Assembly: GCA_963783575.1 (NCBI GenBank)
Contig: CAWAOD010000005.1
Location: forward strand, 416,001-480,000
Source of the DNA: an uncultured Spirochaetota bacterium
Lineage (GTDB): Bacteria; Spirochaetota; Brevinematia; Brevinematales; JAOACQ01
Direction: 5' to 3'
Length of the DNA stretch: 64,000 bases
The position numbers were made by a program. This document shows positions 18,001 through 21,000 of this stretch, in pieces (the stretch's first letter is position 1; each line of letters opens with the position of its first letter).

Positions 18001-21000
18001 ATTTTAGAAAAAATTTATTTTTAGAAAAAATTTATTTTTTAAAGAACATTCCTATAAATTTCTGAAGGCCGGTTTCTTCATCTTTTATTTCCAGATTCAT
18101 TAATCGTCTGGCTATATGGTTAACACAGAGTGAAACATTGGATGTCGGATACATTTGAACGAACGGCGTTTGTTTTCTGACTGCTTCCGAAACAATCGGA
18201 TCGTCATAAATAAATCCGAAATTATCTATCTTGATATTCAAAAACTGAGCGCAGATGTCAATTATCTTTTTTGAAACTTTATTCGCCTCCGCGGGATTTC
18301 TGACGCGGTTCAACACAAGCTTGATATTGGCGTTATCGGACTCAGTAACTATGGCTTTTATTATTCCGTAGGCATCGGTTATTGATGTGGGCTCAGGTGT
18401 TGTGATGACAATTGTTTCATGAGCAGCAAGAACAAAGCTTATCACATTTGAAGAAATTCCTGCTGAAGTATCTATTATAATATAATCGGCATTGCTTATT
18501 TCCTTCAAGCCCTCGATTAAATTGTTTTTTTCTTCCTCTTTAATATTGGCAAGCTGGGTAAATCCGGATGCGCCTGCAATGAAATCGACCCCGGCGTCTG
18601 TTTTATATATTATCTCGGACATTTTTTTCTGTCCTTTGATAACGTGCAGAAGATTATTTTTAGGAATCGCTCCCAATAGAACATGAATATTTGCCAGACC
18701 TAAATCGGCATCAAAAACTATAACCTTTTTCGGGGCGTCTTTCATATTTGCAAGGCTGATGCCGAGGTTTAGAGCAAAACTGCTTTTTCCGACGCCGCCC
18801 TTACCGGAGGTAATTGCTATAATCTTGGTATTCGATCTGGGGAAACTCCCCATCATTCTTCTTAAACCTTCTGCCTGATCCGGACCTAGAATGGTAGACA
18901 TAGTAACCTCAAACCCAAATAATTGTTTACTTTAAAGAATCGGCAATTAATTTATCTACATTAGCAATTTCAAAATCTTCGGGAACGCCCTGTCCGTTTG
19001 TAATAAATGAAAGCGGTTTTTTTGTTTGATAGAGGGTTGAAAGTATGGAACCAAGATATGCCGTCTCGTCAAGTTTGGTCGCGATTATGTGTGAAAAATC
19101 CAGGCAGGAATAACTGTTGATAATAAGGTCAAGATCCTTTGGCTTTGTTGTTGCGCTGACAACAAGATGTACATCAAACTTTTTATTCGCTTTCTTGATC
19201 CAATCGGACAGCTCTTTTATTACTATTGAATCCTTCGGGCTTTTACCGGCGGTGTCTATAAAAGTATAATGGGTTTCATCCTTATCGATAAGGTCAAAAA
19301 ACTGCTCCTGCTTATTGATAGGATAGAACGGCGCTTTCATTAGATCAGAGTATGTCCTGAGCTGGGAATCGGCACCGACCTTGTAGCGGTCTATAGAAAT
19401 GAAGCGTAGGGATTTCTGGCGGATTACCGCTATATGCGCGGCAAGTTTTATTATACTGACAGTTTTACCTACTCCAGTCGGGCCCGCGAATAGAATATTC
19501 TTGCCGTTATTATAATTTTCCATTAATATATCTTCCCGGGCGATATTAGCCTTTAAAAAATCCCTGATGGTAATAAGAACCTGTGATTTATCAATTAAAA
19601 CATCGCTTTTCTGCATTTTTAAAAATTCCAGAACATCCTGTATAAAAGCCGGATGGAACTCCCTTTCTCTTAAAAATTCTTCGGCCCACTGAATATTTTT
19701 CTGTGATATTTCCACATCCTGTATAATCTTTTTTCGGTTATCCAGGGCGGAGTTCCTGTTATTTTTCATCAGGCCTTCTTTTATTTCTTCAAATTCGCTT
19801 TTTATATAGGTCTGGATCTGAGATAAAGACAATTTAAGGTTTACAACTTCCTCTTCGAGTTTTTTATTTTTATCATCTTCGATTTGCTGAGAGTTTTGAA
19901 TATTCATTGATGAAGGTGAAGCGATTTTTTTGTATTCACTGTTTAAATATGTTGAGGTGTCCGTGTTCTCTTCTTTAAACAAGGAAGGCTGGATTTCCAT
20001 TCTCGGCTGAATTTTCCTTCCGGTATTTTTTCTTTCCCTGTCAAGAATCTTGTTCTCATCTATACAAGCGGTAGCGATCCAGACAGTTTCCTTTCGAAGT
20101 CCCAGGAACTTTTTTCTTTCCTCCGGGTATGTTCTTATGAGCATTGTCTCTTTAACCCGGTTTTCCACTCTGGCGGCTGTAAACATTTTATCTACGGCTT
20201 CCTGCTTGGTTCTTCCCTCATAGATTGCATATTTCATAATCCCCTCCCGCCTGAATTATTCTAACACCTTTTTCCTGTTATAGCAATAAATTAATATTAA
20301 TATTTCTATTGCAAGTTGAAGCTTAGCTTCGTATTGAAGCATTGGCTTCAATAAATCAGCTTAAACTTATAATACCTACCTGGTCAAGCGAATAGTTTGT
20401 TGGAATTTCAGAATAGGATAAAACGCCGATCGTAGGGAAAGAACGCTCTATCAATTCTCTAACAAGTCTCCTGACTTTTTGTGAGGAAAGTATAACAGGC
20501 TGTATCCCTGATTTTACCGCATTTTCAATTACGGTAGTTGCCTTTTTCACGAACTGATTAACGAGTTCGGGATCCAGAGTTGAAATCAACCCCTGCTGTG
20601 TTTCCTGTATAGACTCATTGAAAATTTGTTCAAGATCGGGGTCAATTATAATAGCTTTAAGAGTATTGTTTTCATCGGAATAGTTTGAAACTATCTGCTT
20701 TCCGAAAGCCTGCCGGACATATTCAGTGATCATATCGATATTTTTAATGCTTCCCGCATAATCCGAGATTGTTTCAAGTATGGTAAGCATATTTCTTATC
20801 TTTACACCTTCCCTTAGGAGGTTTTGCAGAACTTTCTGAATTTCACCAATATTCGAATGCTTCATTGTTTCTTCAACAATGACAGGGTATTCCTTCTGAA
20901 TGGCATCCGGCATGGATTTCACATCCTGCCTTGTCAAAAGCTCGGCGGCGTTCTTTTTTATGACTTCGGTAATGTGCGTTGCAATAACGGATGGAGGATC

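Follow-up and report, generated by a model that had tools for sequence, protein, structure and literature searches.

A lone flagellar FlhF and the apparent loss of the signal recognition particle pathway in Brevinematia spirochaetes

The flhF gene and its flagellar neighbourhood

The window, a 64,000-nucleotide stretch from the genome of an uncultured Brevinematia spirochaete (G000), carries a flagellar gene cluster on its minus strand in the order fliPQR-flhB-flhA-flhF-flhG, with the genes for FlhA, FlhB, FliR, FliQ and FliP upstream of flhF and that for FlhG downstream. The flagellar export core occupies 23730..25580 and comprises fliP (24807-25580; Pfam FliP), fliQ (24523-24792; Pfam Bac_export_3) and fliR (23730-24512; Pfam Bac_export_1). 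It is followed by flhB, which encodes the export switch (22538..23710; Pfam Bac_export_2, E 3e-116), and by flhA, which encodes the export gate (20356..22425; Pfam FHIPEP, E 7e-251). The flhF gene itself (18927..20237) codes for a 436-aa SRP-type GTPase of flagellar placement, whose Pfam SRP54 G domain spans residues 247-433 (E 1e-32). Next to it lies a flhG-like gene (18032..18901) for a MinD/ParA-type ATPase, the partner of FlhF, recognized by Pfam CbiA, AAA_31 and ParA; against the MinD models of NCBIfam its product scored E 1e-35 to 1e-40, under the cut-off. Further downstream, on the same minus strand as flhG, is a gene for a regulator with a LuxR/GerE-type helix-turn-helix (16708..17655; Pfam GerE at residues 254-304, E 6e-15), whose NCBIfam matches span the helix-turn-helix alone.

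FlhF is an SRP-family GTPase that, together with the MinD-like FlhG, sets the site at which the flagellum is built. In the translation of the window gene the motifs GPTGVGKT, DTAGK and TKLD are legible, and we take these to be the G1, G3 and G4 motifs, all of them intact. The top NCBIfam matches of the protein were FlhF models, all under their equivalog cut-offs (NF009366, 161.6 bits against a cut-off of 585; TIGR03499, 125.4 bits against 174.15), and the ffh and ftsY models scored far lower still (67.4 and 57.5 bits, respectively). The closest solved structure was likewise an FlhF (2px0, E 1e-31), with SRP54 at E 3e-11. The order flhA-flhF-flhG recurred at all 13 Brevinematia loci checked. 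The window gene is an ordinary flhF, albeit a diverged member, and the gene context backs its orthology.

SRP components in the window's genome and across Brevinematia

The SRP, its receptor and the SRP RNA belong to the small set of components regarded as universal and, in most bacteria tested, as essential; natural free-living lineages lacking them are rare. In the G000 assembly (4.91 Mb in 18 contigs, rated 89.85% complete), Pfam SRP54 (PF00448) gave a single match over the cut-off, which was FlhF. Custom HMMs based on spirochaete sequences (11 Ffh, 15 FtsY), run with default filters against all six-frame ORFs of 40 aa or more, also matched FlhF alone (E 1.5e-12 and 8.9e-13, respectively), as the initial annotation had it in naming FlhF the only SRP-type GTPase of this genome. 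The Ffh M domain, SRP_SPB (PF02978), was found neither in the genome at E<=10 nor in the FlhF protein, the M-domain part of the custom Ffh HMM matched none of the six-frame ORFs, and SRP54_N (PF02881) gave nothing significant in this genome. No match to the small or large SRP RNA (RF00169, RF01854) was obtained in G000 at E<=10, and RNase P RNA was detected by the same route at E 3.8e-85. SecY, SecA, YidC and trigger factor were all found, in agreement with the earlier statement that the Sec machinery has been kept.

Some weaker signals were followed up as possible diverged Ffh or FtsY. Four weak custom-HMM matches checked with Pfam proved to be ABC or type II secretion ATPases, and the weakly matching ORFs of ~310-330 aa (FtsY would be a second NG-domain protein of ~300 aa) were ABC ATPases.

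The assembly itself has faults: frameshifts break up essential genes, and one end of contig C6 is a 15-kb foldback duplicate. The concern raised by the completeness figure of ~90% is largely an effect of assembly quality, and errors of these kinds are tolerated by six-frame searches.

Across the class, SRP_SPB scored over the cut-off in 0/43 Brevinematia genomes, most of which are draft metagenome bins, and in none of the 30 rated ≥90% complete with contamination of ≤5%. Exactly one SRP54 match was present in 41 of the 43, the two genomes with zero matches being 57% and 73% complete. RF00169 found no match in 40 Brevinematia genomes at E<=1 with laxer filters. These multi-genome searches score only candidates that pass a loose first look, full profile searches being confined to the window's genome; their controls were recovered in 14/14 genomes for the proteins and 13/14 for RF00169. 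The initial report that Ffh, FtsY and SRP RNA go undetected in this genome and its class is thus reproduced, and its mention of two closed genomes fits G031 and G032, each a single contig (99% and 100% complete), which, like the two-contig G020, each show a single SRP GTPase and lack SRP_SPB. YidC was present in all 12 Brevinematia genomes searched for it.

The RNA searches have limits of their own. With strict filters, RF00169 gave 90 matches at E<=2.2e-6 in a sample of 401 spirochaete genomes, all in Ffh-bearing families, the 16 Brevinematia sampled giving no match; the same filters missed the SRP-positive families f12 (0/2), f21 (0/1) and f26 (0/1). A custom model based on 22 SRP RNAs of spirochaetes, in which the outer helix aligned poorly and only 11 base pairs were kept, recovered four of five SRP-positive controls, found nothing at E<=10 in G000, G020, G031 or G032, and gave a chance-level match (E 1.9) in G036. 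The case for a missing RNA is less strong than that for the missing proteins: neither RF00169 nor the custom model detected an SRP RNA in the SRP-positive genome G056.

Comparison with other spirochaetes and phylogenetic placement

Within the 401-genome sample, SRP_SPB was present in 192 genomes, and about half of the sample (204/401 by row count) appeared to be without SRP. Sampled genomes carry either three SRP GTPase matches or one, and SRP-positive spirochaetes have three SRP-type GTPases plus the SRP RNA. In six of nine SRP-positive genomes, both candidate sister groups among them, ffh lies directly upstream of rpsP, an arrangement seen in 0/13 Brevinematia (G000 and 12 others). The rpsP-khpA-rimM-trmD-rplS-rnhB operon of G000 is intact and sits within a 650-kb contig; upstream of rpsP there is a 214-nt gap and then a divergent PBP gene, this spacer being all that is left of the old ffh site. 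The large SRP-less group other than Brevinematia spans 12 family codes; it is far wider than the genus Leptospira, which it appears to hold. Members of this Leptospira-type clade have conserved genes upstream of rpsP, and these are unrelated to those of Brevinematia.

Trees were calculated from seven linked genes (rpoB, rpoC, rplL, rplJ, rplA, rplK and nusG) without an outgroup, using FastTree (79 genomes, 3312 columns), IQ-TREE with LG+G4 (45 genomes) and LG+C20 PMSF (32 genomes). Each of the three requires three changes between SRP presence and absence. Brevinematia formed one clan (support 100), and the Leptospira-type clan (100) joined the SRP-positive families f13, f25 and f33 with support of 97 to 99. 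The link of Brevinematia to the SRP-positive f21 and f30 was weak under LG+G4 (63) and reached 99 under C20. Forcing Brevinematia and the Leptospira-type clade together lowered lnL by 139 and was rejected by an AU test (p 0.00027) that was carried out after the first tree had been seen. Because the three trees and the AU test separate the two groups, the proposal in the initial annotation of a second SRP-less spirochaete lineage stands for Brevinematia; its picture of the first lineage as Leptospira has to be widened to the 12 family codes, and the trees speak against common descent of the two losses, a point it had left open. The loss in Brevinematia looks separate from that in the Leptospira-containing clade, and G106 (f41) is a likely third case.

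Readings of the absence and known SRP-less systems

We consider it probable that the whole SRP pathway was truly lost in the ancestor of Brevinematia, apparently independently of the loss in the Leptospira-containing clade. The class ancestor would have lost Ffh, FtsY and the SRP RNA and retained the Sec translocon, SecA, YidC and trigger factor. That the genes are present but have diverged beyond the reach of the models, or are hidden in unassembled parts, seems very improbable to us: most genomes are draft bins, G000 has its frameshifts and foldback contig, and G056 shows that an SRP-positive genome may yield no detectable RNA, but two one-contig genomes and one two-contig genome repeat the pattern, phylum-tuned profiles see nothing, one G-domain match stands against three in SRP-positive kin, and the ffh slot upstream of rpsP is empty inside an intact contig. 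Three unlinked genes would each need to have escaped in every genome. It is also improbable, if somewhat less so, that one ancient loss is common to both SRP-less groups, which would make Brevinematia part of the published Leptospira case. Both groups share the three-part absence and the retained FlhF, the trees use only the seven linked genes, the branches deep within the spirochaetes have lengths of just 0.03 to 0.09, and the composition of several alignment rows is deviant. Against this, all three trees place SRP-positive lineages between the groups, the AU test speaks against joining them, and the genes upstream of rpsP are unrelated; moreover, the SRP-positive neighbours (f21 and f30 on one side, f13, f25 and f33 on the other) keep ffh beside rpsP, which argues against a later re-gain.

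An unrelated, unrecognized ribosome-associated factor, either acquired by Brevinematia or of earlier origin among spirochaetes, might have replaced SRP, a reading we consider unlikely. In its favour, genomes that reach 4.9 Mb and encode numerous membrane proteins live without SRP (the window alone codes for MFS, RND-type, FtsX and flagellar export proteins), and at least two, probably three, losses in one phylum suggest a shared pre-adaptation. No candidate factor was found, and the one feature tested, the YidC tail, is not extended. The ribosome affinity of Streptococcus mutans YidC2 sits in a long basic C-tail. In 12/12 Brevinematia the tail after the Pfam 60KD_IMP match has 4-10 residues and a net charge of 0 to +4, no longer than the 5-33 residues of 30 SRP-positive spirochaete genomes. 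Tails were measured at 58 YidC loci; an identical second copy in G013 (L168), a short second YidC-like ORF in G004 (L169) and four weak extra matches without loci were dropped. YidC2-style compensation in its simple form was rejected, the Brevinematia tails being short. FlhF would not replace SRP either, since the M domain that binds signals is missing from it; as a stand-in it was rejected on this anatomy, from Pfam on the protein and the genome search.

Under a true loss of the pathway, inner-membrane proteins would reach SecYEG and YidC by SRP-independent routes. SecA and YidC may bind the ribosome or nascent chain directly, mRNAs may be targeted, or diffusion paths may be short in very thin cells. 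Cell shape (PMC4758666) and mRNA targeting (PMC10066597) are each invoked as explanations for life without SRP, and neither needs a new factor, which weighs against replacement. Repeated loss points to SRP-independent targeting being ancestral to spirochaetes: that SRP was discarded at least three times in Spirochaetota (Brevinematia, the Leptospira-type clade and G106), on the background of such an ancestral route, is a reading to which we give even chances.

A second, independently SRP-less class, together with SRP-positive sister families, amounts to a set of replicated natural experiments on the way in which polytopic membrane proteins arrive at SecYEG and YidC when there is no SRP. If the repeated losses are true, the ancestral targeting route could be identified by setting SRP-less clades against their respective SRP-positive sisters. 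There is a practical side as well: ffh and ftsY are in use as single-copy marker genes, and because of this, their lineage-wide absence would bias completeness estimates of Brevinematia genomes (1.3 to 4.9 Mb in size) downward.

The SRP-less state is known from Leptospira; what is new is an additional class and repeated loss. A literature search found no paper reporting SRP loss in Brevinematia. For Leptospira, of the same phylum, Ffh, FtsY and SRP RNA are likewise not found and Sec is kept (Fouts et al.), and the Leptospira-type clade resembles Brevinematia in retaining FlhF as its only SRP-type GTPase. Brevinematia differ in belonging to another class, in their separate position on three trees and in the AU test, and in the neighbourhood of the former ffh site. 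Dehalococcoides and SAR86, named as lacking SRP in PMC4758666, share with Brevinematia a natural absence of SRP and its receptor and belong to other phyla. Streptococcus mutans tolerates inactivation of SRP because one of its YidC variants has a high affinity for the ribosome, according to PMC10066597; that bacterium survives through YidC and Sec, as proposed for Brevinematia, but it does possess the SRP genes, which were disabled experimentally, whereas those of Brevinematia are naturally absent. Like the Bacillus subtilis FlhF (PDB 2px0) and the FlhF of the FlhF/FlhG switch outlined in PMC12826062, the window protein has a C-terminal NG GTPase and an N-terminal low-complexity region, and the order flhA-flhF-flhG is also that of the window; it differs in scoring under the NCBIfam equivalog cut-offs and in sharing its cell with neither an Ffh nor an FtsY paralogue.

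The flhF gene and the search for SRP components

A 436-aa ORF on the minus strand at window positions 18927-20237 carries an SRP54-type G domain (Pfam; residues 247-433, E 1e-32), and no M domain was found in it by Pfam. Among NCBIfam models those for FlhF rank first (161.6 and 125.4 bits, versus 67.4 for ffh and 57.5 for ftsY), with the ORF staying below every FlhF equivalog cut-off, and the closest solved structure is that of FlhF (2px0, E 1e-31, versus 3e-11 for SRP54). On the same strand it is preceded by fliP, fliQ, fliR, flhB and flhA (assigned by Pfam) and followed by an flhG of the MinD/ParA type and by a LuxR-type regulator; the order flhA-flhF-flhG is kept in all 13 of the other Brevinematia loci checked. 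Because FlhF models and structure rank first and the flagellar context is conserved, the gene is an ordinary, somewhat diverged flhF. Also in the window, downstream of the flagellar genes, a LolA-like protein is clustered with a pair of FtsX/MacB-type permeases (10014-14308, minus strand), adjoined by ORFs without a Pfam family (10014-11300, 14363-15179 and 15750-16631). Two DUF772/DDE transposase copies of 405 aa (59054-60271 and 61800-63017, both minus strand) are spaced 1.5 kb apart and identical at 402 of 405 residues.

The initial annotation regarded this FlhF as the sole SRP-type GTPase of the genome (G000; 4.91 Mb, 18 contigs, 89.85% complete), and our searches agree. The SRP54 G domain (PF00448) has a single match over cut-off, FlhF, and custom HMMs built on spirochaete sequences (11 Ffh and 15 FtsY), run against every six-frame ORF of 40 aa or more (45,943 in all), pick up FlhF only (E 1.5e-12 and 8.9e-13, respectively). 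The next-best weak HMM matches that were followed up proved to be ABC ATPases and a type II secretion ATPase rather than a diverged Ffh or FtsY. The Ffh M domain (SRP_SPB, PF02978) and the small and large SRP RNAs (RF00169 and RF01854) gave no match at E<=10, and PF02881 one chance-level match only (E 0.67); as a positive control, RNase P RNA was recovered by the same route (E 3.8e-85).

Frameshifts split essential genes of this genome into two or three overlapping ORFs each, namely fusA (L130 3121-5072), a class A PBP (L044 6913-9465) and both SecY copies (C6 7345-8293 and 22931-23963), a pattern that speaks for assembly indels more than for pseudogenes. The ORF with the SecA match is likewise just 551 aa long. 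Outside the window, the start of contig C6 (C6:1-15213) repeats C6:16001-31232 in inverted orientation (99.2% identity, 39 gaps); this duplicate, which carries the second SecY copy, resembles a foldback artefact of assembly and probably contributes to the contamination figure of 4.91%. Frameshifts and duplicate together point to a noisy long-read assembly, and this is probably a better explanation of both the completeness and the contamination figures than missing DNA.

Downstream of ffh, the first 12 Ffh loci carry rpsP, a KH protein gene, rimM and trmD. The genome under study has rpsP-khpA-rimM-trmD-rplS-rnhB at C5:53769-56698, far from the contig ends; 5' of rpsP come a gap of 214 nt and a class A PBP gene in divergent orientation. 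A survey covered 30 further genomes: 9 SRP-positive, 12 Brevinematia, 8 from the Leptospira-type clan (a large SRP-less group outside Brevinematia) and the single genome G106. Here ffh lies directly 5' of rpsP in six of the nine SRP-positive genomes (families f13, f20, f21, f25, f30 and f33; not f16, f22 and f28), in 0/12 Brevinematia, 0/8 Leptospira-type genomes and 0/1 for G106. Families f8, f15, f18 and f36 have two genes in common at this site, one of them also kept in f48; the Brevinematia neighbours are different and family-specific.

Distribution within Brevinematia and Spirochaetota

The claim that Ffh and FtsY are missing from all Brevinematia searched was borne out: SRP_SPB exceeds its cut-off in 0/43 genomes (0/30 rated high quality), and SRP54 matches exactly once in 41/43 and not at all in the two least complete (57% and 73%). 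Two single-contig genomes (G031 and G032; 99% and 100% complete) and one of two contigs (G020) all fit the SRP-less pattern. In the sample of 401 spirochaete genomes, SRP_SPB is present in 192, and SRP54 gives a clean division between genomes with three matches (Ffh, FtsY, FlhF) and genomes with one. One-match families are f1-f7 (Brevinematia), f8, f15 (75 genomes), f18, f29, f36, f41, f45, f48, f51, f52, f58, f59 and f61. By row count, 204 genomes have FlhF only or, in three incomplete genomes, no SRP54 match; they comprise the 43 Brevinematia, G106 and about 160 more. Five further SRP_SPB-negative genomes (60-87% complete) belong to families otherwise with SRP. G115 (78% complete) has one SRP GTPase match and no SRP_SPB or RF00169 match, while other members of its family, f33, have SRP, a pattern reflecting either incompleteness or very recent loss.

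The accompanying claim of class-wide SRP RNA absence agrees with the searches, on weaker ground. RF00169 had no match in 40 Brevinematia genomes at E<=1 with laxer filters; among 151 spirochaete genomes it gave 90 matches at E<=2.2e-6, all in Ffh-bearing families, and none in 16 Brevinematia, 16 f15, 6 f18 and 3 f29 genomes. It also failed in SRP-positive f12 (0/2), f21 (0/1) and f26 (0/1). Our own model, R1, was made from 22 spirochaete SRP RNAs and has just 11 base pairs; at E<=10 it had no match in G000, G020, G031 and G032 and a chance match in G036 (E 1.9). It recovered four of five SRP-positive controls, f12 and f26 included, and missed G056 (f21). Since both models miss SRP-positive genomes, the RNA evidence is weaker than the protein evidence. 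G056, from a candidate sister group of Brevinematia, has Ffh (E 4e-157, own profile) and three SRP GTPases with no SRP RNA by either model, so that its RNA has either diverged or gone unassembled. In an SRP-less f8 genome without Ffh, RF00169 has a weak match over its full length (G043:C351:43881-43982; 22 bits, E 0.07), which could be chance or a relic.

One loss or several

Whether the loss is common with Leptospira by descent, left open by the initial annotation, was addressed with trees of concatenated RpoC, RpoB, L7/L12, L10, L1, L11 and NusG (3312 columns; nine rows less than 80% filled). Of the 80 genomes selected, 79 yielded RpoB, the exception being G099 with its withheld bases; FastTree was run on 79 rows, IQ-TREE under LG+G4 on 45 (34 dropped) and under LG+C20+F+G4 PMSF on 32. 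All three trees agree on Brevinematia as one clan (support 100), placed beside SRP-positive f21+f30 in both IQ-TREE analyses (63 with LG+G4, 99 with C20) and grouped, without resolution, with f16+f28 and f21+f30 by FastTree. The remaining SRP-less genomes except G106 form one clan (support 100), which groups with SRP-positive f13, f25, f33 (in FastTree also f11) and G106 (97 to 99). SRP presence or absence costs three changes on each tree, and the log-likelihood falls by 139 units when the Brevinematia and Leptospira-type rows (19 together) are kept on one side and the remaining 26 on the other (LG+G4; p-AU 0.00027, in a test performed after the first tree was seen). Re-gain of SRP in the lineages between both SRP-less groups is unlikely, because those lineages keep ffh-rpsP.

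Leptospira is not known to be classed in Brevinematia. Passages of PMC4758666 report it to be without SRP. Being SRP-less and outside Brevinematia, it would have to sit in the large SRP-less clan, where f15 has 75 species. G106 (f41; 96% complete; rpsP locus L237) has one SRP GTPase, no SRP_SPB or RF00169 match and no ffh 5' of rpsP, and is placed by all three trees amid SRP-positive f13, f25 and f33; it is likely a third SRP-less lineage.

Novelty and inferred membrane targeting without SRP

A full-text literature search, with subscription journals outside its coverage, found no report of SRP absence in Brevinema or Brevinematia; Gupta et al. 2013 name Ffh only as a Borrelia signature, and in Cavalier-Smith 2020 SRP comes up only with regard to its origin. 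Naturally SRP-less bacteria are already a known kind of finding; what is new, as far as searched, is that this class belongs to them, that the losses are independent and that their extent is wider.

SecY, SecA, YidC and trigger factor are all present in the genome under study, as the initial annotation had it, and we infer a membrane-targeting route without SRP. Because SRP-positive spirochaetes are thin too, thin cell shape cannot be the whole explanation. It was suggested, in a passage of Fouts et al. (PMC4758666), to shorten the path to the membrane. Passages in Sarmah et al. (PMC10066597) describe two further possibilities, a bypass in E. coli through mRNA targeting and, in S. mutans, tolerance of SRP inactivation via a ribosome-binding YidC variant. 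Past the YidC Pfam match, 12 Brevinematia have a tail of 4-10 aa (net charge 0 to +4); it measures 5-33 aa in the 30 SRP-positive genomes examined and 3-36 aa in 16 SRP-less genomes from outside the class. Two side observations concern YidC: G013 has two matches with equal scores in inverted orientation on one contig (C3:70967-71533, plus strand, and 88568-89134, minus strand), possibly another foldback duplicate, and the small Brevinematia genome G004 has a second short YidC-like ORF (C3:31054-31596; 224 aa, E 3e-17). The short Brevinematia tails mean that there is no YidC2-like tail, and compensation of that kind was therefore rejected in its simple form.
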